64,000 bases of DNA from Savitreella phatthalungensis (taxonomy: Eukaryota). Positions 13,661-60,365 of this stretch are shown in pieces. The stretch's first letter is position 1, and each line of letters opens with the position of its first letter. Both the position numbers and the translations under genes were made by a program. The stretch lies in assembly GCA_051599415.1 (NCBI GenBank), contig AP039711.1, positions 1 through 64,000 on the forward strand, read 5' to 3'. Below the pieces are notes generated by a model that worked only from the letters and a program-made list of their open reading frames with translations, was not told the origin of the DNA and did no database searches.

Positions 13661-15706
13661 ATGACACGTCGCCTTTTTCCGAATGCCCTACGTCGGGAAA
13701 TTGTAAAGACCACAGAATCTACAGACTCGCCACACAGTCTAAGAGCAAGCAGTCAAGTATCTTCGTCAACGATATCACTCATGTGTGAAGGCCAGATCCC
13801 ACTTGAAGATGTCGTTTACAGCACCGAAAAGTCATTTGTAAAGCGAGGCATCTTCAGGAGATACGCTTCGACCATATGTACTCTCACCACGATGGCCGGC
13901 GTGCCCAAACTCAACCAAGACCTGATCTACTATGAAATCGGCCGCCGACACGATACAGCTGTCGCTGCAATGAGCCGTCCTCGAAATCCTGTGATCGTTG
14001 ATTCTGGCTTTGAGACTGCAGTGTCCGAAGCCGAAGCGTTGAGGGATTTCGCGCGAGAGCACACGGGTCTCACCATGACCTTTGCTCGGACTAATTTGAT
14101 CGGGGTCGTGGAACGCATCGCTAGAGGACTGGCGTGTGCCTCTCTCTACGAAAAGGTCGACTCCGAGTGTCTCTTCGCGGGTCCGAGAAAGGCTGTCATG
14201 TTGCTCAAGCACCAGTGCCTGGACACTCCGCTCCACGAAAACGTCGTCTTTATTCCTCGCGGGAATACACGCTTCGATGAAAATATCTTCGTTGTTCTGG
14301 CCTCGGCTATCGCCGGAGAAGGAGGAATTCCCGCGACTAATTCTTTGAGCGCCGATGATCCCATGAAGTCAATGTCCCTGCCTACCGTCGACAGCAAAAG
14401 GTTCCCCAAGGCCTGCTTCAATGCCCTTCGGGTCCTCGGCGCCAATTTTGAAGCAAGCAATGCAGGCGATCAATTCGCTCTCGGCTTCACTCAAGGCATC
14501 CACTCGGCCATGAATGTCGTCCCACACAGCTATGAAGGCTCCATCATGCACGAAATCCTGGGCCAGACCTCCTATTCCGTACCTTTCGGGGGTATTCGTC
14601 TCGATCATTCTTCATACTTTGGGTTACCCAAGCATCCAGACGACTTAGTGTCTTTCCATGGTAATGTCGATGGGATCGCACTGAAGACCGCAGCTTTGGT
14701 CGCGCACTGTGACCCTTGTGTGCAGGTGAATGGAGAATGGTTTCCAACCATCCTCGGTGATGGTGCAATGTCCGCTGTTCGAGACGCCGAACTAATTACC
14801 ACATCCGGTAAAAGGGCTGATCGCAACTGGGGTCGTTTGAGACAAGTATTTCCCTCATTCTCCCGGATTTACTGCGCTGCACTCACCAAACTCTTTGCTT
14901 TTCCCCCTTCTGACTCGGGAGCTGACATCCTCTTCAATCACACCATTGATTCTATTGAGGAAGTCAAAAACTCCGTTCCTCTATACTATGGGTCTTTTGC
15001 GCCTTTCTTCTTCATTGAACCGACCAGTCTGGTCGACACTGATTTTGTCGGCTCGATTGCCGAACGAGAGGGCTTCGCTAGTCTTGCTGGGGGAGGTCAG
15101 GATGTCCATGCACGTAATGCGTGGGAGCATATTACCGTGGCCTCATCTTCGCGCAGAAGCGTCACGCATTGGGAGGTCAAGATGCGCAGCGCTCGAACTG
15201 CCTTATTTTTGGCGCATTTCGCAGGCAACCTGCGATCCTGCCTTACATCCATTCGCATCCACGAAATAAATGCAAATGCAACTATGCGGGCCCACAGCGG
15301 TCATCCACGTATAGGTGAATGGTCTCGCGAAGATTCCACGTTGGGCGACTGCCTATGGAGCCATTCCCACTCATGCCTACCTGCACCAAGCGAATTTGTC
15401 CTCCTAGCGCCGTATATGTGTATATCCGTGAGGCACTTTGACACAACGATCGACAAGGACAACCTTCCACTCATGCGGCGCGTTCCCTTGCCTCACGAAT
15501 TTGCTGAGACCAAGATCAAGATTGTTGCGTCCGTTCCGCAGTGGATTTGCCCAGGCAGGGCAGAGTCTCCTACGCGCGACATGGACTTACGTCCCTCAAA
15601 CGCTGTTGCCCAGATATCTAAGGCATGCACAAGTTCAGTCAGGGACCAATCGAGAAAACGGTCAAGAGCTTCAGCAGAGCTGTCAGATGGTGAAGCAAGA
15701 GAATGA
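13661..15706 (+). CDS. Endogenous victorivirus/totivirus-like capsid protein (non-retroviral integrated RNA virus gene); start could be the ATG at 13781
   Basis: Motifs FRRY, IYYEIGRR, VERIARGLA, YSVPFGGI, DGIALKTAALVAHCDPCVQVNGEWFPT and APFFFIEPTSL occur in the order I recall from victorivirus coat proteins. Confidence 0.85.
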   Translation: MTRRLFPNALRREIVKTTESTDSPHSLRASSQVSSSTISLMCEGQIPLEDVVYSTEKSFVKRGIFRRYASTICTLTTMAGVPKLNQDLIYYEIGRRHDTAVAAMSRPRNPVIVDSGFETAVSEAEALRDFAREHTGLTMTFARTNLIGVVERIARGLACASLYEKVDSECLFAGPRKAVMLLKHQCLDTPLHENVVFIPRGNTRFDENIFVVLASAIAGEGGIPATNSLSADDPMKSMSLPTVDSKRFPKACFNALRVLGANFEASNAGDQFALGFTQGIHSAMNVVPHSYEGSIMHEILGQTSYSVPFGGIRLDHSSYFGLPKHPDDLVSFHGNVDGIALKTAALVAHCDPCVQVNGEWFPTILGDGAMSAVRDAELITTSGKRADRNWGRLRQVFPSFSRIYCAALTKLFAFPPSDSGADILFNHTIDSIEEVKNSVPLYYGSFAPFFFIEPTSLVDTDFVGSIAEREGFASLAGGGQDVHARNAWEHITVASSSRRSVTHWEVKMRSARTALFLAHFAGNLRSCLTSIRIHEINANATMRAHSGHPRIGEWSREDSTLGDCLWSHSHSCLPAPSEFVLLAPYMCISVRHFDTTIDKDNLPLMRRVPLPHEFAETKIKIVASVPQWICPGRAESPTRDMDLRPSNAVAQISKACTSSVRDQSRKRSRASAELSDGEARE

Positions 15707-22348: not shown

Positions 22349-23617
22349 ATGTGCTTTGCTCAACCTCCACGGGTATATAGGTTCGACGGTACGTGAGTTG
22401 TCTTCGAAGTCTGATACCGCAGGATAGGTGTAGGTGTAATCATGGTCAGAGCTGGCCCGAGCTTCGAGGGGGTCTCTCCTAGCATCGCTCCGATGTTCAG
22501 ATCGGATTTGATCTCGATGAGGCAAGGCAACAACTGGAGGACTACAGCCGGAGTTGGCTGGCCTCATGAGAGATTGACTTCCCATGGTCGTATTGTGGAT
22601 CGTGGTCCAGGCAGAATGGATTACACGGTCCATTATTCCCTTGCAGCGAGCGGTCGCGGCGTCAAGGTCTACGTGGTAGACTCCGGGATCGCTTGTAATC
22701 ATCCTGCATTCCGAGACATCGTCGGTTACCGGACTGCTGCTCGACGCACAGGGCGCCTGGCTTCGTGTCCCGATGAACTCAACTTCGCCGGTGGTATCCA
22801 CGGCTCCCAGGACAGTCATGGTCATGGCAGTGCTCTCGCCGGCACTGTGGCAGGCAGATTTGGGATCTCACGCTTCTCACACCTGTTCTCAGTCCGGGTG
22901 CTTGGACCTGACATAGATGGAACGGGCTTACTCAGCAACATGCTCTTTGGCCTCGAGAAGATCCTCACGATCCAGAGACAATCTAACGACCCATCGATAG
23001 TCCTGCTGGGAATCTCTCTCCCAAAGTCAGAGGCGCTGGACGTGCTTCTGAACGCCATGGAGCGGCCTGAGATGACAGTCGTGGCGGCGGCGAGTGATAG
23101 CAGTGAGCTTGCGAGCTCCATGAGTCCTGCGACGGCCGTAAGTCCGCTGGTGGTGGCGGCGAGCGATATTCAAGACAGGTATGCGGTGTTCAGCGGGCAC
23201 GGGAGAGCAGTTGATTGCATTGCGCCAGGCGTTCACGTCCCTACAGTCGACCTGAACTCATTTGTCCCACAGTTCGCATCCGGGACATCCCTGGCAGCAG
23301 GGTACACCGCTGGCACACTCGCATGCTGGTTCACCATTCTTCGTCGCCTGCGCACCATGCAGCACGTCCGCCGGTTCATGCTCTTCATGGGCAGCAAATC
23401 AATCCTCTCTGGCGTGCCAGAAAACACCGTCAATCTCTTTGTCCAAATGCCGCTGGTGACGAGACGCTTCCGTGGCGATACTTCTGCATTCGACAATGAA
23501 GGCGATGGTGATGGAGACGGTGGAGACGATGATGATTCCGGCGACAGTGACGGAGATGGAAGCGGAGGTGGAGACTCCGAGGGCACAGTCTCAGACAGAG
23601 AAGCACATCACAGATAG
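22349..23617 (+). CDS. Divergent proteinase K-like S8 subtilisin with acidic tail (5' end uncertain; probable short intron near 22393-22422)
   Basis: VYVVDSGI, GHGSALAG and ASGTSLAAG triad motifs. GTGAGT...CTGAT...CAG, if spliced, removes an in-frame stop upstream of ORF 22442. Confidence 0.75.
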
Positions 23618-23731: not shown

Positions 23732-25324
23732 TCAGTAGACGGCGACAAAGACCTGCTCGGGCTCAGACTCGGACTCGAAAGGAATCTGGTCGACGCCGCA
23801 GTAGCCTGGCTCAGATCGATCACCGTCCAACCAGCTGGTGATCCTCTTGACGGCGCACGCAGATTTGAGCGCATCAGAGCAGTGGCCGTACGACCCGTTA
23901 ATTCTCAAGACTTGGCCGCCAAAGTGGTCAGCATATGTGACAGCGTGACGCTGTGGGGTCACAAGGTCGTACTGGTTGCCGACAAAGAGGATGTCTCTGC
24001 CGTCGACCTTGCGCTCGAGGTCGAGACGCTTCGATGGTTTGAATGGATAGTCGACGCACCGTGCTGGGATGAGCGACCAGTACTCCGCGTAGAATGGGGA
24101 CTGCTTTGCGTTGTGCTGTTCGTGCTTCTTGAGGTCATCGGGCGTGAGTATGGACGAGTGTCCAGCAGCGTCTCCGCAAGCTGTTGCGAGTCCGCCTTCT
24201 GAGCCGAGCGTCGACGATACCAGATCACCGTTGTTTTTCCAAAACTCGTCCGCCTTGCCATCGAGCAACAGTGCAAGCGCATGAGCGAGCTTCGGCCACT
24301 TGTCTGGAAAGTAGAATGCGTGGATGAGGACCTCTTTTAGGCGGGAGTATGTGATGAGACCACCGGAGCGGCCGTGGAAGGCCGGCAGCGGCGATTTCTT
24401 GACCTCTTGCAGGAGCTCGTCGACCCGCTGACGGATCTGTTTCGGGGTGCCATACTTGTGCAACTCGCACTTGGATGACGCTGCACAGCTCTCAAAGAAC
24501 TTGTCGATGACGGCCTCGGTGTCGTACAGGTTCTTTCCCCAGTCGCCTTTGTAGTAATCGTGCAGATGGGCAACACCGTCGACGACAAAGTTGCCGATAT
24601 TGTCTGGGAAGACCTTGGCAAAGGTCATGCCCAGCAGGGTACCGTACGAGTAACCCCAGTAATCGACCTTGACCTTTTCCGGGGTCTCTTTCTGCATCTT
24701 GGCCGCAATGAACCGCAGGTCGTGAACAACGTAATAGGTCGAGATATAGTTGCCGATTTCGCCAGAGATGGCTCCACAACCCCGTGATTGGACTTTGTTC
24801 GACGCCATGGCTCTTTCGTAGCTGTCCGCTGCGCTTGAGAGCATACCACCGGACTCACCTGCGCTAACGCCGCGTTCGAGGCCTGATGCGTAGCACTCCA
24901 TGCTAGGAATGCTTCCATTGATCCCGCGTGGATCCCAGCTGATGATGTCGCGCGTGCCGTTGAATCTGTCGGCTGTGCGGACTCCATTGCGGTAGATCAG
25001 GTTCACGCCAGAACCTCCTGGACCTCCTGGATTTTGGAAGATTGGTCTGTTGCCGGCTGATCTGTTTCCCCGGACTCTTGCGAGCGGCAGGCTGATCGTC
25101 CGGTCATCACCGTCCTCGTACGTCAAGGGGACGTCGATTCGCGCACACTCGATTTTGCCATCCACGGAACAAGTCTTCCATTCGAGCTCTTCATCATGGT
25201 GGTGCTGGAGAATGAGCAGGAGAGCGACCAGAATGACGACTGGCATGACAATCAATGGCCATCGCGTCCGTCTCTGTGACGGGCGAAGGGGCCGTCCGAG
25301 CAGCTGAGTCTCTTCGTCGCGCAT
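23732..25324 (-). CDS. TAP-like alpha/beta hydrolase (S33-type peptidase) with N-terminal membrane anchor
   Basis: NPGGPGGSG, WDPRGI, GYSYGT, DLVTP and YGHCS motifs; start MRDEETQLL followed by a transmembrane segment. Confidence 0.9.
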   Translation of the reverse strand: MRDEETQLLGRPLRPSQRRTRWPLIVMPVVILVALLLILQHHHDEELEWKTCSVDGKIECARIDVPLTYEDGDDRTISLPLARVRGNRSAGNRPIFQNPGGPGGSGVNLIYRNGVRTADRFNGTRDIISWDPRGINGSIPSMECYASGLERGVSAGESGGMLSSAADSYERAMASNKVQSRGCGAISGEIGNYISTYYVVHDLRFIAAKMQKETPEKVKVDYWGYSYGTLLGMTFAKVFPDNIGNFVVDGVAHLHDYYKGDWGKNLYDTEAVIDKFFESCAASSKCELHKYGTPKQIRQRVDELLQEVKKSPLPAFHGRSGGLITYSRLKEVLIHAFYFPDKWPKLAHALALLLDGKADEFWKNNGDLVSSTLGSEGGLATACGDAAGHSSILTPDDLKKHEQHNAKQSPFYAEYWSLIPARCVDYPFKPSKRLDLERKVDGRDILFVGNQYDLVTPQRHAVTYADHFGGQVLRINGSYGHCSDALKSACAVKRITSWLDGDRSEPGYCGVDQIPFESESEPEQVFVAVY

Positions 25325-26647
25325 GAGAAGTCGATGCAGGTTCAAATGACGCGACACGATACGACGCGACACAACACGATGATTTGTACAGGGAAGGCAT
25401 GATTGCAAGGATGGAGAACGCACTGGAGGTGATGCGGATCTTTGCCTGTGTGAGGGGTGGGGGATCTTATTCAGTGCTGATATACGAGAATACCATGTGA
25501 CTGACATGCACATGTGTTTTGATTCGCCCACAGCAGGATATAGTAAATTATATACAGTATATAACAAAACATTTAACAATAGTATACGGCCTTGACCAAG
25601 TCAGAGAGTCAAGTCTTCAGGGTGCGGAAATACGCACTCGAGGATATCGTAGTCGTGACCTCCATACACGTACATCACATACTTTCGGTGAAGGCTCTTC
25701 GTGGAGAGTGGTGATTTGATGCGGTCTGAAGAGGATGCCATCTCTCAGCACAGACGGAGATGCAGTCTTTCCAAATGACGCAGGTCCCTCTGACGCCACT
25801 CACCACGTCGGCTTCCATAGCCGACATAGCCCACTTGCCAACAAATAGAGTATACTGGACAGAGAGGTAGGGATCATACCGAATGAACGCTCCCGATGTT
25901 CTGCACGTATCATGAAGACAACCAGGATCTCAAAGAAGGAGGTAGACAAGACAAGGTGCATATAGACAGTTCAATTTGGCTCAACTCTTATTCCAACATA
26001 TCTACCAGCTCCCCTTGTGCACAAAGTGTCACCCTGGTGTCCTCTTTCGAGATCGATCGATTCATGTGTATCTGGCTGCACATTCACGCAACAGGCTTGT
26101 CTCGTACGTATCTTAGTGTGTTTGGTTGCATACGCAAGACAATCTGCGAAGTGAGAACACGTCTATACATGGCAGTTGCCCACACGCCGATATCCACGTG
26201 CACGATACGACCTCAGTCAATGGTCGTGGAGCGTTATGTCCACGGAACAAGTGGATGCGTTGCAGGAATCGAGGTCATCTCCCGCATAGCCATGTACTTT
26301 TGCGTCAATTGATTCAAGCCTGTTGCGCATGTGAAGCGCTTGTGAGTGTGACATGGAATTTCCAGCAGTACAGTCCAGATATAAAGACGCTCTCGGACGT
26401 CTAATGTCATCCATACTAAGCTCTCTGACCTTCACACTGGCGTCCACAGATATCCTCACATATGCATGCAAACGCACACGCACACGCACACGCACACGCT
26501 CACGCGTATGCGCAGATGTCACATGCATACACAAACACATACACGTGCATGGTCACGGATGCATCCCCAGAAGTGTCCACCTGACTAGTTCATTCGTCAT
26601 CGCCATGCAGTTGAAAGCTACATAAGGACACCCATCCGCCCACATTT

Positions 26648-27164
26648 CAGCAGACCACAGCAATCGGTCTATCAGGTCTAGTGAAAGACGTCAAAGAACG
26701 TTTTGCTCTAAAAGAAAACAAGCCGGACACCTCATCCTTCCAAAAGCGCTCATCAGGTACCTTCCAATTCTGGCAAACCACTGAGCCACTGGCTATCGGA
26801 TAAAAGATCCTATTACAGCAGGACGATGCTCCATCGGCGTTCTGCTCTAGTTGGAGCTTTTATTTGATACTCTAATGGTTCAGTAGTCTGCTAGAATCGC
26901 TGGGTGTTTGGTGAGCCTATTGTGATGATCGGGTCTCCAGATGGTTCTTCTAGAGCAACACGTTTAGGGACGTCTTGTGTTTGAACTGGTCTGCTGTGAT
27001 AAAGGCTGTTTCTAGACCGATGCTTGGCAGAAGAGACTACCTGGACAGTGTTGCTTGACTTTGTCATGACTGATTCAACAAGGACAGTAGCGCAGACTTC
27101 GGGGTCGCTTTAACTTGTCTTTGACACAGTAAAGACTGCCGCCCTGCTATCTGCTCAATTGAGC
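26648..27164 (+). ncRNA. Candidate long structured RNA (about 340-nt imperfect rod plus 3' multibranch domain), family unknown
   Basis: Nested complementarity centred near 26830 with many G:U pairs; no ORF; CA-rich tracts on both sides. Confidence 0.5.
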
Positions 27165-28053
27165 ACACACACGCTCACACACACACACACAAAGGTCAGA
27201 TACTGGAGAATGTCTGCTTTATAGCCGAACTAATGAGAGCGCTGCAATCTGATCTCTTCGCTTACATGCAAATTGCCGGTCAGCAAGTTCGATTGTCCAC
27301 GCTGAGGTATTGTGATTGTGCATGCTACAGGACTGTGATTGTCTGAATCAGTCGGTCTTTAACTCTTAGCGTCAACCTGTTGTAGGCTTCTGAGACACGA
27401 GCAAGGCATGTCAGCTGCTCGCAGAAGCGACGCATGTGATATTGCGGTGATTTCACATGGAGAATGAGGCGATTGTATCGGGGTACGGCTACTCATGTAT
27501 GATACAATGCGACATGGCTGAGACGCTCACGCAGCTTGTCTGTATCACCGGGAGCCCAGGCTCTGACTTCAAGAAGACGAGAGACTCCATGTTGTACGGT
27601 CGAGCAAGGGCATATCACCCACTCACCCACCCACTCACTCACTCACTCACTCACTCACTCACTACTTTGTTTGCGTGCATAGTAACGTGCTGTGCTGTCG
27701 ACATTTGGCTCATCAGTCTTCACTTCATACAATTAAAGTTAATTAAGCGCTTGTTTGTGCATCTGACTCGAAACGGAAATTGAATCTCCAGATCAGTGGG
27801 TCAATCAATCGATCAATCAACCACAACGTCATTCTCAACAGCCATCCCTCAGCTTCAGCATCATTTCCAGCATCAGCTTCAGCATCATCCCAGGCGGAAA
27901 CATCTCATAAAGCTACTGATCCCTGTCTGAAGGCGCTCTTCTCGCTTAGCTACTGTACTGCGCAAGGATTTTAACCAGGTCGCAGCCGAGAATGAACCCT
28001 ATGTGAGCGTTTAGAACGCTCCCGACAACGACGACACAGAAACGGAGAGCGCG

Positions 28054-29952
28054 ATGCTCAGACCGCGCAACAGCTCGCTCATCGCCAGAAAAGCTTCTGG
28101 TACAAGCGCTGGCGCAGAAACTAATGGCGGCCGCTCAGATTCCAGCTACTCAGTCTTCACCGAAGCTGAACCGCCCGCGAAGCCGGCATTCTTCCACAAG
28201 TCGGCGCACGACCTGTATAATGTCACCGCACCAGTAGTGAGTCAGTCGCCTGGCTGGACGGCATTCTCAGAGTACGACTGTGAAGCACTAGAACACGCTT
28301 TTATCTCTGAATCCGATATACCCGTTCTGATTGGCATTGAACGGCTGCACTCTGTCGATGTCAAGCAGATGCGGATGCAGCCAGTCTACTGGACCAGTAT
28401 AACTTCCAGCAGTGCAACCACAGACGTCATCCGCAGCCTCTGGTTCTACACCGACAAGACGCCAGTCAAGCAAGACTTGAGCGATGCACTCGAGCGCGGC
28501 TACAAGCACATCAAGCCGTGGACATCTGCCTACGAGGCAGAGATGCGCTCAGCTCAAGAGATAGGAGGTGAAGCGGAGAGTAAAATTCGGCATACACTGA
28601 TGCAGGAGAAGTTTGCGATCTACAAGGATGGAGAAAGCGCATGGGTCGGTAGCGACTCCTTCCAGTCGAGGCTGGCCAACACGATTCTCGGCAGCATCGG
28701 CAAAGGCAAACGCTCGCCCTACGTCGAGGTACGTCGAGGCTATCAGTGGCAGGACTTGCCGAAGCCGAGTACACCGACAGATCTGATTCTCGTGATTCAC
28801 GGGATCGGACAGAAACTCGCAGAGACCTCCCCTGGCTGGACCTTCACCAATGCCGTCAACAAACTTCGGCAACTGATGCACGAGCAGCGAGACACCGTCA
28901 AGGGAGTCCTGCGCGAAGACTACAATCCACAGATTCTGCCTGTGAACTGGCGCACAGCTTTCGACCCGGACAAGCCAAATGCCAAATTCTCTCTGAAAGA
29001 CATCACGATCGACTCGATCCCTGCAGTGAGAGATCTGCTAGCAAAAGTGGCGCTGGATGTGCCTTACTTCATGTCGCATCATCGATCCGCGATGGTGGAC
29101 GCTGTTGTCGGAGAGTGCAATCGCCTGTTCAGACTCTTTGTCGATCACAACCCGGACTTCTCAGGGAAAGTGCATTTGATCGGGCACTCGCTCGGTAGCG
29201 CGATTGCATTCGAGATTCTTTCTCGTCAGCCGGCAGACGTCAATCGATCGAGCCTGTACGATGTCATCTCTCGGCGTTTCACGGAACCGGTCTCACAGTT
29301 CGACTTCAACACACACCACCTGTTCAATTGTGGCGCACCAGCTCCTTTCTTTCTCCTGCTTATGGACCGCAACCTGGTGCCGCGGAAGGGCTTGAAGTCG
29401 AGCGACTCTCGTCTAACGCGGCCTGCACGGTACGGTAGTCTGGCGGCCAGAAATATCTACAATATCTATTACCAGACAGATCCCGTCGCCTACAGACTTT
29501 TACCAGCGGTCGATGCGTCATTCGCACAGATTCTACCACCGACCATCATACCTGCCAAGCTGAAACCTGACAAGGAAAATCAGAAGGAGAAGGACAAGGA
29601 GAGCGGATTGCCTCCCGCACCTGGACGCTTGCCATCCACAGTCGAGCTCGAGACACACAACTTTGCGAAAGAGTCTCTTGCAGATGGTCGACTCCGGCTG
29701 CTGAATGAGAACGGCCAGATCGACTACATCCTGCCACAAAGCACGTCCGTCATGGGTCTCGAGTCACAGTATTTGTCAATGATTTACGCGCACCAGGCTT
29801 ACTGGGATTCTCGCGAATTCGCCAGGCTGATCCTGGTCGAGTGCGGTCGCAAAGGCGAACCGGTCCACTGGCTCCGCGGCCAACGCAGACCACCTCCACC
29901 AACACAGCCCTCAGATCCACCGCCGCCACGCTCACCGAAGCGAAAGCTATGA
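28054..29952 (+). CDS. DDHD-domain phospholipase A1 (Ddl1/YOR022C-like)
   Basis: LVIHGIGQ, ILPVNWR, GHSLGS and NIYYQTDPVAYRL motifs; AHQAYW near the C-terminus. Confidence 0.9.
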   Translation: MLRPRNSSLIARKASGTSAGAETNGGRSDSSYSVFTEAEPPAKPAFFHKSAHDLYNVTAPVVSQSPGWTAFSEYDCEALEHAFISESDIPVLIGIERLHSVDVKQMRMQPVYWTSITSSSATTDVIRSLWFYTDKTPVKQDLSDALERGYKHIKPWTSAYEAEMRSAQEIGGEAESKIRHTLMQEKFAIYKDGESAWVGSDSFQSRLANTILGSIGKGKRSPYVEVRRGYQWQDLPKPSTPTDLILVIHGIGQKLAETSPGWTFTNAVNKLRQLMHEQRDTVKGVLREDYNPQILPVNWRTAFDPDKPNAKFSLKDITIDSIPAVRDLLAKVALDVPYFMSHHRSAMVDAVVGECNRLFRLFVDHNPDFSGKVHLIGHSLGSAIAFEILSRQPADVNRSSLYDVISRRFTEPVSQFDFNTHHLFNCGAPAPFFLLLMDRNLVPRKGLKSSDSRLTRPARYGSLAARNIYNIYYQTDPVAYRLLPAVDASFAQILPPTIIPAKLKPDKENQKEKDKESGLPPAPGRLPSTVELETHNFAKESLADGRLRLLNENGQIDYILPQSTSVMGLESQYLSMIYAHQAYWDSREFARLILVECGRKGEPVHWLRGQRRPPPPTQPSDPPPPRSPKRKL

Positions 29953-46892: not shown

Positions 46893-49085
46893 ATGGACGC
46901 CAGCGATCAGGCCTCAAAGGCACTCTCAGATGATGCGCTCGGCCACCGTCTCCCGTATCGCAGGTATCCACCAGAACAGATGATAGCCCTTCGTCAATCG
47001 CCTTTAGTCGCAAAGATGAACGTCGATGTCCCAGACTGGGTCACTCGAAAAGCCATGGACAAGGCCAGAGAACAGCGGGCACAGCATCCAGTTCATACCG
47101 ATGGTTTCACTCAGGTCCCTGGCAGCGAACGCGAACGCGAACGCGGTCAAGGCAGAGACCGCGTAGATCGCGACCGCATAGATCGCGATGGCAACACCAG
47201 ACCACCACGCGGCGATGCACGAGAACCCAGAGAGTTCCGGGAAAGTAGAGATGGAACATCGTCAACTGGATACAGAGCAGCAGCTGGTCTAGATAGCTCT
47301 GACAGGAGGCTTACGCGGCGTGAACGAGAAAGAGAACACCGCGAACGGATCGCTGCAGGTTCTGGCAACGCCGGAGGCCCCGGATCAGGCGCAACGGTAA
47401 CGCAGACATCAAAGGACGACGGTCTATGGGAAGAAAAGCGTTCGAGGCGTGCAGATGGAGCTGGACCGGGCACTGGTACAGGTATCGGCGGCGCACGCGG
47501 TCCAGGCGCAAACGCACATGCACATGCCAGCTCAGGGACAAACTCGAGTGCAGGCGCGAGAGCAGGATCCTCGGCTGCAGTGCAGGCGTTCGACCAGGAA
47601 TTTGCAGCTGTCACATCTGGCGCACGTCCACCTTCGGCCAGGACACGTCCAGATCGACAGGCGAGACATGCCGCACAGGTAGCTGCCCAGGATGAACACC
47701 TTCCGCGACTGGCCGATGAAGACGATGATCCACGGGGCAAGACGATGGACGACTTTGAAAAGTGGAAAGCAGCGATGAGGAAGAGTCAGGGTCTGCCAGA
47801 GAAGGAGGAGACAAAAGCGAAGGATTCGACGGCAAGTGCTAACTCTGCCTCAGCTCCAGCTAAAGCAGCCGCGTCAACAGCAGCATCAGAATCCGCATCG
47901 GCAGCAACGTCAGCAGCCACACCAGCGGTCAATGCGCCGCCAGGCTTCAATATTGTCCCTTCACGGCCTGCAGCTGCCACAGCCTCTCCATCTAAGCCTA
48001 TGGGTACGTCTAAGTTCAGCAAGTTCTTTGGCGCAGCCAAGGACGAGCCTGCTCGAGCGCCTTCACCCGCCATGGCGGCGGCGGCAGCAGCAGCAGCATC
48101 ATCGTCAGCGTCAGCGACATCGGGTAACCCAGCGAACGCTCCGCCTTCTGCAGACGCGCTCTCTGGACTGTTTGCCGCAAACAAGTCTGGTAGTCGTGAA
48201 GATGCTGAAGGATTTGAACGGATCCTCGCGATGCTCTCTGGCGGAGGCAAGTCCAGCAACCAACCGGCGAAAGACTCGGTCGTACCGCAGACGACTCGTA
48301 AGGCGGGACCTCCTCCAGGATATGACGCCAAGCCAGCGGCTCATGCTCAGGCTCCAGCTCACTCGCATGCACCGCCAGTATCTTCCAAAGCTGGCGAAAT
48401 TCTAGCACACCACACGCAGAATCAAGACTTCTTCATGTCGCTTCTTGGCAATGACGGTCGTGCGCCAGCAAATGCTGCTCCTCCCCAGCCGCATCACCCA
48501 CAGCAGTCACGCCCACCGCACCGGGGGCCACCGCCGCCCATGCCACCATTCGCTCAGCCGCCTCCACCGCACACGTCCTCGTCATCAGCTGGCAATCGGC
48601 AAGGCGAGATTGATTTCTTGACGTCCCTGATGCAGCAACAGCAGGTTGGCGGCAGCGGCAACCATGGACCTGGACGACCACCACACGGTCCGCCGTCATC
48701 GGCGAATGCTGCAGCAGCAGCAGCACCGTATGCCATGTATGGCAACGGCGGTGCGTACCCTGCGCCTCCACCATCTAGTGGCATGCGCGTCGGCATGCCG
48801 CCTCCACCAATGCAAGGCGGTCACACAATGCCGTACCCAGGCGCAGGCCCACCGCCTCCTCCAAGAACTGAATACCACCAGCATTTCCCACCACTCGGCG
48901 GCCACCAACCGCAGCAGCAGCCACAGCAACAACACCGCCCAGGCAATGCATTTGAGCTCGATCCACGGATGCCACTCGCAAACCACCCACAACAGCAACC
49001 ACCATCCCAAGCACGCAGGCATGACTTCTTCCCTGCACCACCACCTCCTCCATCACACGCTCACCCGCATTCGCATCCGCATTGA
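46893..49085 (+). CDS. Low-complexity putative eIF4E-binding protein (Eap1/4E-T-like)
   Basis: N-terminal RRYPPEQMIALRQSPLV is a variant of YxxxxL-phi; islands DDFEKWKAAMR, SKFSKFF and GFERILAML; Pro/Gln-rich tail. Confidence 0.6.
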   Translation: MDASDQASKALSDDALGHRLPYRRYPPEQMIALRQSPLVAKMNVDVPDWVTRKAMDKAREQRAQHPVHTDGFTQVPGSERERERGQGRDRVDRDRIDRDGNTRPPRGDAREPREFRESRDGTSSTGYRAAAGLDSSDRRLTRREREREHRERIAAGSGNAGGPGSGATVTQTSKDDGLWEEKRSRRADGAGPGTGTGIGGARGPGANAHAHASSGTNSSAGARAGSSAAVQAFDQEFAAVTSGARPPSARTRPDRQARHAAQVAAQDEHLPRLADEDDDPRGKTMDDFEKWKAAMRKSQGLPEKEETKAKDSTASANSASAPAKAAASTAASESASAATSAATPAVNAPPGFNIVPSRPAAATASPSKPMGTSKFSKFFGAAKDEPARAPSPAMAAAAAAAASSSASATSGNPANAPPSADALSGLFAANKSGSREDAEGFERILAMLSGGGKSSNQPAKDSVVPQTTRKAGPPPGYDAKPAAHAQAPAHSHAPPVSSKAGEILAHHTQNQDFFMSLLGNDGRAPANAAPPQPHHPQQSRPPHRGPPPPMPPFAQPPPPHTSSSSAGNRQGEIDFLTSLMQQQQVGGSGNHGPGRPPHGPPSSANAAAAAAPYAMYGNGGAYPAPPPSSGMRVGMPPPPMQGGHTMPYPGAGPPPPPRTEYHQHFPPLGGHQPQQQPQQQHRPGNAFELDPRMPLANHPQQQPPSQARRHDFFPAPPPPPSHAHPHSHPH

Positions 49086-56882: not shown

Positions 56883-58088
56883 ATGTTGTCGACATTCCTT
56901 ACGACCGTCCTCGCAGCTGCAGCAACAGGCGTCTCTGCACAGACAGCCTACCAGCGCGCTATCCCGCCGAGCCGCGACTCCTGGTACACTGCACCGAACG
57001 GCTACGAACTCACACCTCCAGGCTCTGTCCTCCGTGTTCGTCAGGCGCCTGGAAACTTCTCGTCCTACAACGCAGCTGCGGTCTACCAGCTGCTCTACCG
57101 CACGACCGACTCGCTGTACAATGCCACTTTCGCAGTCACCACCCTTTTCGTGCCAAAGACATCCACCGGACAGGCATTCCTCCAATACGGTATCCCCTAC
57201 GACACTGCCGATGTCGACGCTTCCCCATCCTACACACTCGCCACGTCCCCAGTGACAGACATCGCGAACGGTCTCGCGAAAGGATGGTACGTTGCGACTG
57301 CCGACTACGAGACGAAGAAGGCTTCGTTCACTGCCGGTGTAGTTTCTGGTCATGCTACGCTTGACTCGATTCGTGCTGTTCGGAGCTCTGGCTTTGGCCT
57401 GCTGGAGAATGCGACGGTGGCGCTGTGGGGCTACTCTGGCGGTGCGCTCGCTTCCGAGTGGGCCACCGAGCTCCAGGTCCAGTACGCTCCTGAGCTGAAC
57501 ATCTCCGGCGCTGCTCTTGGCGGCCTCACCCCCAACGTCACCTCCGTCCTGCTGGCCGTGGACGGCAGCATCGAGGCTGGATTGATCCCGGCTGGGATCC
57601 TCGGTCTCGCCTCCCAGTACCCTGGCGCTCTTGACCTCCTGAACTCGACCCTGAAACAGTCTGGCCCGATGAACGCCACTGGCTTCTTCGCCGCTCGCAA
57701 CTACTCACTCACCCAGTCGATTGTCGCGTTTGCAGGCCAGCGGATCACCGACTATTTTGTGAACGGGATCATGGAGCTGTATTTGCCCCAGCTCATGCGC
57801 ATCACCAACCGTGACGGCATGATGGGATACCACGGCACTCCGGACACTCAGCTGTACGTGTACAAGGGCACTGCTGACGAGGTTTCCCCTGTCGCTGACA
57901 CCGATAACTTGGTCAACCGATACTGTGCCAACGGCGCAAACATCCTCTACGACCGCAACGCCAATGCCACTCACGTCAACGAGGCAACCTACGGCGCTCC
58001 AGCAGCTGTCCAGTTCCTCACCAACATCTTCGCAGGCAACTACTCACAGACTGGCTGCACCATTCGCAACGTCACTGTCAGGGCGTAA
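56883..58088 (+). CDS. Secreted lipase (LIP / CAL-A-like family)
   Basis: Signal peptide; YQLLYRTTD, ADYE, GHATLDSIRA and WGYSGG nucleophile motifs; DEVSP and H motifs. Confidence 0.92.
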   Translation: MLSTFLTTVLAAAATGVSAQTAYQRAIPPSRDSWYTAPNGYELTPPGSVLRVRQAPGNFSSYNAAAVYQLLYRTTDSLYNATFAVTTLFVPKTSTGQAFLQYGIPYDTADVDASPSYTLATSPVTDIANGLAKGWYVATADYETKKASFTAGVVSGHATLDSIRAVRSSGFGLLENATVALWGYSGGALASEWATELQVQYAPELNISGAALGGLTPNVTSVLLAVDGSIEAGLIPAGILGLASQYPGALDLLNSTLKQSGPMNATGFFAARNYSLTQSIVAFAGQRITDYFVNGIMELYLPQLMRITNRDGMMGYHGTPDTQLYVYKGTADEVSPVADTDNLVNRYCANGANILYDRNANATHVNEATYGAPAAVQFLTNIFAGNYSQTGCTIRNVTVRA

Positions 58089-58286
58089 AATTTCGTAATT
58101 TGTCTTCCTCTTTTATCTTCTTAATACCATACCTACCTACCAACCACTCGAGCGTGACCTCGTTCGGTATGTGCGCGTGACTAGGCCTCGGTGAATCGTG
58201 GCAGGACGATTCCGGCGGTGTCATGTGAAGGAGTATTGGAGGTACAAAAAGGCCTGGAGAACTGTCCTTCTCGCACAGCAACGGTG

Positions 58287-60365
58287 ATGTGGGTGTCTTC
58301 GTATGTGGTTCTCTTAGGAGGCTCGATATCGATCGTGCAAGCGCAATCTCGAATCACCCTCACAGGATCGACCTCCTCAGGTACACTCACGGCCACACAA
58401 ACACCAACACCAACACCGACGCCGACGCTGACGCCGTCCCCAAATATGAGCGTCACCGGGAGTGTGTATCCGAGTGCTAGTCCATCATTCAATACTTCGT
58501 CAGACGACGAGTCCGAGGACGACGAGCGATCTGTGATGGGTAATGACGGGTCGATGTCTGGCGGTCGAGAGGATTCGTTTACCTCGTCGGATGACGATTC
58601 CGAGAGTGAGAGCAATGACGACGATTCTGACTCCGATAGCTCGAGATCGTACTATGACGTTCGATCTCGGGCTTGCTCTCGCGATCAGCAGCGGACGATC
58701 GTCTGGTCGACGAGTCGCACACAGGGTATTCGATCGCTTTTGCCTGCATCGCTGAACGAGAGCTTGTCGGGTCACGTTGTGAGGGAGTATCGGCGGTTGA
58801 ATGGGATTGTGTTCTCCGAGACCCTCCCTGCGTCTGTGGTGTCTGGGCTTTGGGCTGTGCGGGGTGTGAATGTGGTCTGTGATGGTATCGTTGGTGACGG
58901 GAACGCGTACGCTGACGGTGGGAGTGACGCGGAGGACGTCAAGGTACAGCGGGATGCGCCTTGGCAGTTGTCGAGACTCGCTACTGGACATCAGCCGTCC
59001 TTCAATCTCGACACGGGATCTTATCGGGGCGACGATTCGAGCGAGCTGGATTCCGACAGCGAGCGCGACGATGCACCTGCGCCTGACGATACAGACTCCA
59101 GGAGCGAACGCAGCGACTACAGCGATGACGGCGACGCTTCGAGCGATTATGCCGACTCGAGCGATGACGAGAATTGGCGACACGCAAGACCTCACGGCTC
59201 AACGACCGCGCGTGGCGGAAGAAGTCGACGGCTTCGGCGTGTCTACCAGCTGCGCTTGCGCGAAAGGCGGTACCAGTACAGGTGGTCGACCAGCCGTGCG
59301 GGAGAAGGAGTGTTTGTGTACATTCTTGATCGGAAGATCGACCGCCGGTCGCCGGAATTTCTCGTCGAGATTGGTCGGGGTCCACTGCCGAGACGGCTGT
59401 GGGACAGGACGGGGATTAGTGGATATTCGGACCGAACGGCTGGCGATAATGGTGGGATCAGGACTCGCGTGGTCAGGGTGTTTGCACAGACGCAGTCGAG
59501 TTACTGGCCTGGCGAGGTCGAGGGCCAGCACATGCAAGGCTTCATTCATCACGGGACTGCGCTCGCTGGTCTCGTGGGTTCCGGCAAGTACGGCGTGGCG
59601 AAACGGGTGACCCTGGTATCTTACGACGTGTACGGCGGCGCTAGAAGGACGCGAATGTCGGATCTCGTGGAAGAGCTCGACAATGTGTGGGACGACGTGG
59701 AGAATCGAACTGGTGGCAGCCCCACGGTTGCCGTCTTCACCATCACCGAGCAGAACCCGTACTACAGCGACCATAATCCAGGCCCAGTGCAAGAGATTCT
59801 GGAGTCCTTGGTGATTGCAGGTATGCACGTCGTCGTCTCTGCAGGCAATCAGCCTGTTGATGCTTGCAGATTGTCGCCGGCGCGGTCGAGGAGACTGATT
59901 ACGGTTGCTGGGCTGGACACATTTGGGAAGTCTCTGGATCTGCGGAGTGCTTACGGAGATTGCGTGGACCTGGTTGCACCGAGCGTTGGACTGCTGACGA
60001 CTGGTTGGCGACAGTTTCACTCACCTCGTCAGGTATCTGGGACGTCGTTCGGAACTGCACTCGTGGCTGGCGTGATAGCTCAGTGGATAGACAACGCACG
60101 AGAGCGGTCGCAGGCCGTTGGCAGTGGCAGTCTCGCATACAGTCCCGAGCGCATGAAGCGGTGGCTCGTTCGCAATGCTTGGACAGACAAAGTTGAGATG
60201 CCTAGAGGAAGGGAAAACACGCCGAACTTGGTGATTCGTTCTAGACCTGCAGGCGCGCTTGATCCCGGCGCTACACCCGCAGTCGACCCATCACATCGGA
60301 ATCCAGACTTTGCAGAGAGTGATTCGGAAGCTTCGAGGCCATCGAACGGGACGGAAAGCGACTGA
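58287..60365 (+). CDS. Divergent secreted S8 subtilisin-like protein with acidic Ser/Asp-rich insertions
   Basis: Signal-like MWVSSYVVLLGG; APWQLSRL, VYILD, HHGTALAG, SAGN and SGTSFGT motifs. Confidence 0.8.
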   Translation: MWVSSYVVLLGGSISIVQAQSRITLTGSTSSGTLTATQTPTPTPTPTLTPSPNMSVTGSVYPSASPSFNTSSDDESEDDERSVMGNDGSMSGGREDSFTSSDDDSESESNDDDSDSDSSRSYYDVRSRACSRDQQRTIVWSTSRTQGIRSLLPASLNESLSGHVVREYRRLNGIVFSETLPASVVSGLWAVRGVNVVCDGIVGDGNAYADGGSDAEDVKVQRDAPWQLSRLATGHQPSFNLDTGSYRGDDSSELDSDSERDDAPAPDDTDSRSERSDYSDDGDASSDYADSSDDENWRHARPHGSTTARGGRSRRLRRVYQLRLRERRYQYRWSTSRAGEGVFVYILDRKIDRRSPEFLVEIGRGPLPRRLWDRTGISGYSDRTAGDNGGIRTRVVRVFAQTQSSYWPGEVEGQHMQGFIHHGTALAGLVGSGKYGVAKRVTLVSYDVYGGARRTRMSDLVEELDNVWDDVENRTGGSPTVAVFTITEQNPYYSDHNPGPVQEILESLVIAGMHVVVSAGNQPVDACRLSPARSRRLITVAGLDTFGKSLDLRSAYGDCVDLVAPSVGLLTTGWRQFHSPRQVSGTSFGTALVAGVIAQWIDNARERSQAVGSGSLAYSPERMKRWLVRNAWTDKVEMPRGRENTPNLVIRSRPAGALDPGATPAVDPSHRNPDFAESDSEASRPSNGTESD

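Follow-up and report, generated by a model that had tools for sequence, protein, structure and literature searches.

The account that we favour for the strongly folding stretch at 26648-27164, and to which our reading of the sequence gives somewhat less than an even chance, is that of a single-copy non-coding RNA unit of about 500-520 nt on the + strand, a Pol II hairpin RNA that goes back to an inverted duplication and is cleaved by RNase III. Its components differ in strength: transcription of the locus is quite likely judging from its promoter-like signals, dependence of a function on the RNA fold is an even call on the modelled structures, and production of small RNAs from the arms, argued by analogy, is doubtful. 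The window analysed is the first 64 kb of the 229-kb contig C23, in an assembly of 12.7 Mb with 27 contigs and TTAGGG telomeres. The hairpin element sits between a divergent alpha/beta hydrolase gene (TAP-like; 23732-25324, - strand, start codon taken from the sequence) and a same-strand DDHD phospholipase gene (28054-29952, +), whose closest named relative is that of Taphrina deformans (43% identical), with Pezizomycotina behind; this ranking suggests a Taphrinomycotina fungus. The original prediction of an ORF-free element holds: none of the three ORFs of the gap had a credible Pfam match (E<=0.001), none of seven gap frames fell below E 0.1, and the longest ATG ORF beginning within 700 nt of the TATA-like box described below encodes 37 aa. 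The gap is also the largest gene-free one between long ORFs from 8.9 kb onward, in the part of the window beyond the subtelomeric 1-8.9 kb. Upstream of the hydrolase gene there is a two-way TATA-rich stretch (25549-25563) and a Homol D-like string (25497-25504).

The imperfect inverted repeat in rod form is real, and all ten helix pairs originally quoted, together with the apex, were found where they had been placed. The 517 nt of 26648-27164 fold on the + strand with -199.1 kcal/mol (z -6.81) and on the minus strand with -187.7 kcal/mol (z -7.51), and none of 100 shuffles was as good on either strand. In a GC-corrected scan of 425 + strand windows of 300 nt the element ties for the top residual z (-3.9, the next being -2.3), and among the 140 inverted pairs that the window contains at distances of up to 1 kb, the outer arms of the rod are the longest. 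A rod of about 340 nt had been proposed; the rod exists, but it is continuous over 292 nt (26685-26976), a length that grows to about 350 nt only if the helix 26648-57/26987-96 forms. On the + strand, the 5' arm (26685-26828) and the 3' arm (26832-26976) are colinear, with three internal gaps, and meet without a spacer at a 3-nt apex loop (26829-26831; 6 nt in the minimum free energy fold). Their 141 aligned columns comprise 103 Watson-Crick pairs (73%), 15 G:U, 6 A:C and 17 other combinations, and the longest uninterrupted duplexes are of 15, 13, 9, 9, 8 and 8 bp. The rod matches itself with E 1e-22, as a long inverted repeat that folds into a duplex.

The base of the rod can be closed in more than one way. 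Helix a joins 26648-26657 to 26987-26996 by ten Watson-Crick pairs, and helix b joins 26659-26671 to 27013-27024, their 3' strands lying together within 26987-27024 (+). The two helices cross, and in the model they would therefore be alternatives or form a pseudoknot; in the nested ensemble helix b (26663-71/27013-21) has a probability of about 0.93 vs 0.01 for helix a, and forcing helix a costs only 3.3 kcal/mol. Additionally, 26649-53 can pair instead with 27144-48, with a probability of 0.90-0.99 for a helix of 5 bp that depends on the ends chosen. The order in which helices a and b stand on either side of the rod does not appear to be one that a single inversion would produce. Downstream, the multibranch domain described between GGCAG and CTGCC (27026-27140, +) does close, but it encloses two hairpins, one of 83 nt rich in G:U and one of 20 nt, rather than three, and its fold is marginal (z -1.6, 10/200 shuffles as good; minus strand z -0.62). 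In the fold the UUCG of the supposed C-UUCG-G hairpin is paired within a stem and forms no tetraloop. A possible 3' end may be placed at 27144-27190 (+), where the closing strand 27144-48 is followed by a small hairpin (27153-64) and a CA repeat.

A TATA-like core-promoter 11-mer lies at 26618-26628 on the + strand, one base off the box of the U3 gene and identical to that of a histone H2A gene, with a predicted start at about 26649-26654. Counted from its first T, the similar box of U2 precedes the start by 32 nt and that of U3 by 35 nt; in the element the corresponding distance, to the first paired base, is 29 nt, and the 5' boundary of the element had been drawn before the box was noticed. 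The 11-mer was chosen post hoc, by comparison with the U3 promoter, and with 7 occurrences genome-wide vs 14 for the reversed control it is not over-represented. Five of its six other copies lie 36-126 nt before a same-strand gene, the sixth being ambiguous, and these genes code for U3, histone H2A, a cellobiose-dehydrogenase cytochrome protein, a WD40 protein and a FAD oxidoreductase. Four Pfam-confirmed ORFs start 49-126 nt after a copy (the histone H2A one after the identical variant), and the true start of the FAD gene may lie about 240 nt later, its domain beginning at residue 81. In a control, 38 of 300 random non-ORF positions had the start of an ORF of at least 120 aa within 133 nt, against which the position of the 11-mer before four of five protein cases gives p ~0.001 (hand calculation). 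None of ten generic TATA-like matches in the window, seven of them subtelomeric, precedes an ORF of at least 120 aa within 250 nt. Motif scans also gave a second, upstream TATA-like hexamer (26380-26385, +), with a possible alternative start at about 26413. A CA-rich 11-mer (26493-26503, +), found upstream of the U3 TATA box too, flanks the element by recurring at 27168 and is present as well at 49054; it is possibly only low-complexity sequence. The TATA-like box probably marks a non-coding Pol II unit on the + strand, because it stands at U2/U3 spacing with no ORF behind it. The proposal of an unannotated structured non-coding RNA thus gains a box at gene-type spacing and a single-copy locus, but the excess of G:U over A:C that was to accompany it is only borderline.

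In this regard, G:U and A:C positions were counted from an arm alignment favouring neither strand, under 27 settings. The inner helices gave 12 G:U to 4 A:C (two-sided p 0.077) and the whole rod 15 to 6 (two-sided p 0.078; one-sided binomial p 0.039), with p ranging from 0.02 to 0.12 over the settings; of the 12 and 3 counted originally by hand, the G:U figure stands and the A:C figure becomes 4. As a sign of selection at the RNA level the asymmetry is therefore borderline, and folding is nearly as strong on the minus strand. The neutral decay of a single arm was then simulated 150 times, with a transition:transversion ratio of 26:10 taken from a relative's contig (a single one, at depth 3.1) and with indels left out. 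As few as six A:C were reached in only 4 of the 150 simulations, which means fewer A:C than neutral decay predicts; the energy gap of -5.9 between the strands was equalled in 52, and at least 17 transversions occurred in 11. With -132, the real rod falls short of the stability of the decayed repeats from the simulations, whose mean was -160 (indels left out), and no clustering of mismatches into loops was found along the rod (permutation p 0.72). For the inner rod the + strand fold is the more stable one, by 13.6 kcal/mol, and DNA-parameter folds of the rod are equal on both strands (-54.5 and -55.2). Both the A:C deficit and the stability of the inner rod favour the + strand, the one to which the TATA-like box points. 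Overall the rod has the appearance of an inverted duplication of some age in which any G:U bias on the + strand is modest at best, since its mismatches are scattered, its strand energy gap lies in the neutral range and its A:C deficit is borderline.

The rod was found at one place in the 12.7-Mb genome at E<=10, namely itself, whereas the same search recovered, as a positive control, 15 copies of a subtelomeric repeat with identity down to 84%; the dispersed copies of a MITE are thus not seen. No source or target gene with extended complementarity to the arms was found in the genome at E<=10, a test whose reach does not extend to short targets of single siRNAs. Outside this genome, an exact 28-mer of the element occurred at no place in metagenome contigs, a 20-mer at two bacterial places and one 18-mer at no place in viral contigs, and phages gave no match. 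At 80 of 158 confirmed DDHD loci there was neither a blastn match to the gap nor a tblastn match to five neighbouring proteins, and an nhmmer match of E 0.042 (three DDHD loci, identical coordinates) was weak and was taken as chance. Four DNA sequencing runs gave no contig that spans the rod. In the literature searched, no such locus was described in Taphrinomycotina.

These data bear on two explanations in which the locus would not be a host RNA gene. The more serious one, though still unlikely in our estimate, is that the rod is a functionless decayed DNA inverted repeat, a foldback scar or the relic of an extinct palindromic element, with a TATA-like box that is there by chance or that drives cryptic transcription. 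Colinear arms with three gaps and no spacer, randomly spaced mismatches, an energy asymmetry within the neutral range and equal DNA-parameter folds are all what such decay would leave; the box at gene spacing on the very strand that G:U favours, the A:C deficit reached in so few simulations, the two crossing flank helices (10 and 12-13 bp), the single copy and the lack, on visual inspection, of a target-site duplication next to helix a or the ends of the rod argue against it. An integrated copy of a viroid-like or satellite RNA, as first suggested, or an active MITE, is by contrast very improbable. Viroid-like RNAs are rods with about three quarters of their bases paired, and the element is alike in shape and in its pairing of about 73%; another virus-derived gene, for a totivirus coat protein, lies in the same window. 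Unlike them it has a single apex, a host-type promoter, one genomic copy and no external match, in viral contigs (one 18-mer) or in phages, and no ribozyme model matched it at E<=10. Two minus-strand CTGATGA strings were considered as a possible ribozyme, but by eye no hammerhead core follows them.

Searches for known RNA families were likewise negative: Rfam gave no match at gathering score in the window and, in the gap, six matches at E<=10 that had low scores and were driven by repeats, so that the Rfam/Infernal comparison, ribozyme models included, assigned the element to no family. U3 (on C7), U2, RNase P and MRP genes lie elsewhere in the genome. RNase P and MRP RNAs have two crossing helices around a large domain, a topology that the element recalls; both genes are located at other places (C23:89125 and C9:295661), neither covariance model matched the element, and the P4 motifs are missing from it. 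U1 is recognised by a 5' splice-site-binding end, loop motifs and an Sm site, none of which is present here. SRP RNA has a forked S domain with a helix-8 motif and a Pol III terminator; the element has a single apex, no Rfam match to SRP at E<=10 and no run of five T in 26648-28000. As a C/D snoRNA, U3 included, the element was rejected as well, since its sole C-like box lies inside the rod and its 11-12-nt antisense matches are not followed by a D box, with U3 itself on C7; at 26937-47 there are 11 nt that match 25S rRNA, a result close to chance level (about 0.9 such matches expected by hand estimate). H/ACA guides were sought by looking for pockets that lie 14-16 nt away from an H or ACA box and can pair in two parts with rRNA or snRNA. 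The element had 15 candidates vs 8-36 in seven control stretches, and its best score was 15 vs 12-14, with the box inside the rod; only one pocket was well shaped, and forming it costs 9 kcal/mol, with no target of more than 9 bp.

Fungal telomerase RNAs have a long arm, a pseudoknot and an unusually large intergenic gap, and the element is alike in its long arm, its possible pseudoknot and its large gap, but unlike them it lacks a template and an Sm site. Telomerase RNA requires a template (PMC7857110), complementary to more than one telomere repeat, and no TTAGGG template was found, the window having no exact 8-mer apart from the telomere itself and 26640-27990 no 9-mer with one mismatch. 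According to PMC7601244, the 5' hairpin of snR30 is very long, and its m1/m2 motifs, which pair with 18S ES6, are invariant. The element shares with snR30/U17 the great length of the 5' hairpin, the ANANNA that directly follows it (27029), the additional hairpins and a size like the 500-600 nt of the budding-yeast RNA; it differs in having no m1/m2 and no favourably folding 3' pocket hairpin ending at ACA. The m1/m2 motifs are absent on the + strand throughout 25350-28000, although the genome's 18S ES6 keeps the partner sequences, and duplexes of the element with ES6 were no better than with 10 shuffles.

Filtered model and pattern searches, the Telomerase_Asco one being time-limited and so no sign of absence, located U1, snR30/U17, SRP RNA and telomerase RNA nowhere in the genome. 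None of eight loci with a U1 5' motif matched Rfam, none of the four scanned out of ten TATA-plus-motif loci was U1, and a Metazoa_SRP match (E 0.5, C4) did not have the look of an SRP gene. U1, SRP RNA and snR30 were not located although U2 was, and they may be diverged or intron-split.

Two further explanations keep the locus as part of a transcript. That it encodes the RNA of a structural RNP, a strongly diverged U1, snR30/U17, SRP or telomerase RNA or a new one, with the long arm as a scaffold, comparable to the 5' hairpin of snR30, on a junction closed by the 5' and 3' ends, is improbable in our view. The snRNA-type spacing of the promoter, the high probability of the closing helix (0.90-0.99, for 5 bp and dependent on the chosen ends), the ANANNA after the long hairpin with ACA triplets downstream and the failure to locate those four RNAs elsewhere would suit it; against this, the defining motif of every family is absent (telomere template, m1/m2, U1 motifs and Sm site, SRP match) and the H/ACA guide scores are no better than those of controls. 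Less probable still, by a clear distance, is a structured 5' leader of a long DDHD phospholipase mRNA isoform that damps translation or stability. The DDHD gene is on the same strand and is the first sizeable gene downstream, but it is 1.35 kb away, and the divergence pattern of the relative fits a separate DDHD promoter at about 27.6-27.8 kb: the relative's contig (one, depth 3.1) covers 27207-27830 and differs at 36 of 292 bases in 27207-27498 vs 7 bases in 27575-27830. The latter stretch, non-coding and situated before the DDHD gene, is about 97% identical in the relative vs 88% for the former, and in it a branch point (27763) and a 3' splice site (~27790) could plausibly serve a 5' UTR intron.

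Other features of the window and the genome were recorded as well. An intact ORF of 681 aa for a totivirus coat protein (13661-15706, +; PF05518, E 7e-113) lies between DEAH helicase and sulfite reductase genes and is, by its sequence, an endogenised mycovirus gene with an open frame. The second strong fold of the window, at 1831-2110 (+; -124 kcal/mol), ties with the element for first place in the scan; it is the repeat of 15 copies that served as control, with 84-100% identity and nearly all copies near contig ends, and is possibly a SINE-like subtelomeric repeat. It carries strings like the A and B boxes of tRNA genes, and ARAGORN finds no tRNA in it. The window also holds two subtilase genes (22442-23617 and 58191-60365, both +) and a secretory lipase gene (56883-58088). 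Elsewhere in the genome, head-to-head telomere arrays inside a contig (C2:311053-311250) suggest that two chromosomes were joined in the assembly.

Returning to the hairpin RNA cut by RNase III, the machinery that it would need was found in part. An Argonaute ORF of 951 aa lies at C4:668669, and the RNase III search returned two proteins, one of 499 aa with one RNase III domain and a dsrm (C2:871650), a putative Pac1/Rnt1-like RNase III and the only such enzyme found, and one of 264 aa with a weak match, presumably a mitochondrial ribosomal protein. Filtered genome searches for RNase III and Dicer-dimer domains found no canonical Dicer, which cannot prove its absence, and a filtered search found no RdRP, its control also having no match, so that absence is not implied. 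The original suggestion of a Dicer hairpin precursor is thus weakened, although an Argonaute and one RNase III are present. Taphrina deformans has Dicer and Argonaute (PMC4159005), and in Candida albicans a single RNase III can serve both as dicer and in Rnt1/rRNA processing (PMC3579876).

The element probably belongs, by analogy, to the hairpin RNAs made from long inverted repeats. It resembles the Drosophila hpRNA and long-inverted-repeat endo-siRNA loci (PMC10317233) in that a putative non-coding unit has, close to its 5' end, an imperfect inverted repeat, and in its likely birth by inverted duplication. The hpRNAs of Drosophila typically match a target gene (PMC10317233), whereas here no target or source gene and no canonical Dicer were found and the longest uninterrupted duplex is only 15 bp, so that its membership is tentative. 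In the sequence of events that we propose, an old local inverted duplication would have given the rod, and Pol II would start near 26650 and produce an RNA of which the rod forms the 5' two thirds. The duplex, with its runs of 15, 13, 9 and 9 bp, would then be bound and cut by the Pac1/Rnt1-like RNase III, and the pieces would either load Argonaute as endogenous small RNAs or simply be turned over. A bolder extension, for which we see only a slim chance, is Dicer-free RNAi, in which canonical Dicer and RdRP were lost and Argonaute kept, and a promoter-driven hairpin is diced into guides by a single Pac1/Rnt1-like RNase III, in the style of budding yeasts and independently in Taphrinomycotina, within a genome that has also retained an intact totivirus coat gene. 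An equally admissible alternative is that the element represents a new class of RNA of about 510 nt with an snRNA promoter, whose base, on the modelled structures, would be switchable or pseudoknotted.

Without expression, the locus is no more than an inverted repeat that has decayed in the ordinary way. If it is expressed and conserved, it would count as an RNA gene that annotation has missed, in an early-branching lineage of ascomycetes that has been little studied, and it would lend itself well to studying the role of Argonaute in a genome in which no Dicer has been found.
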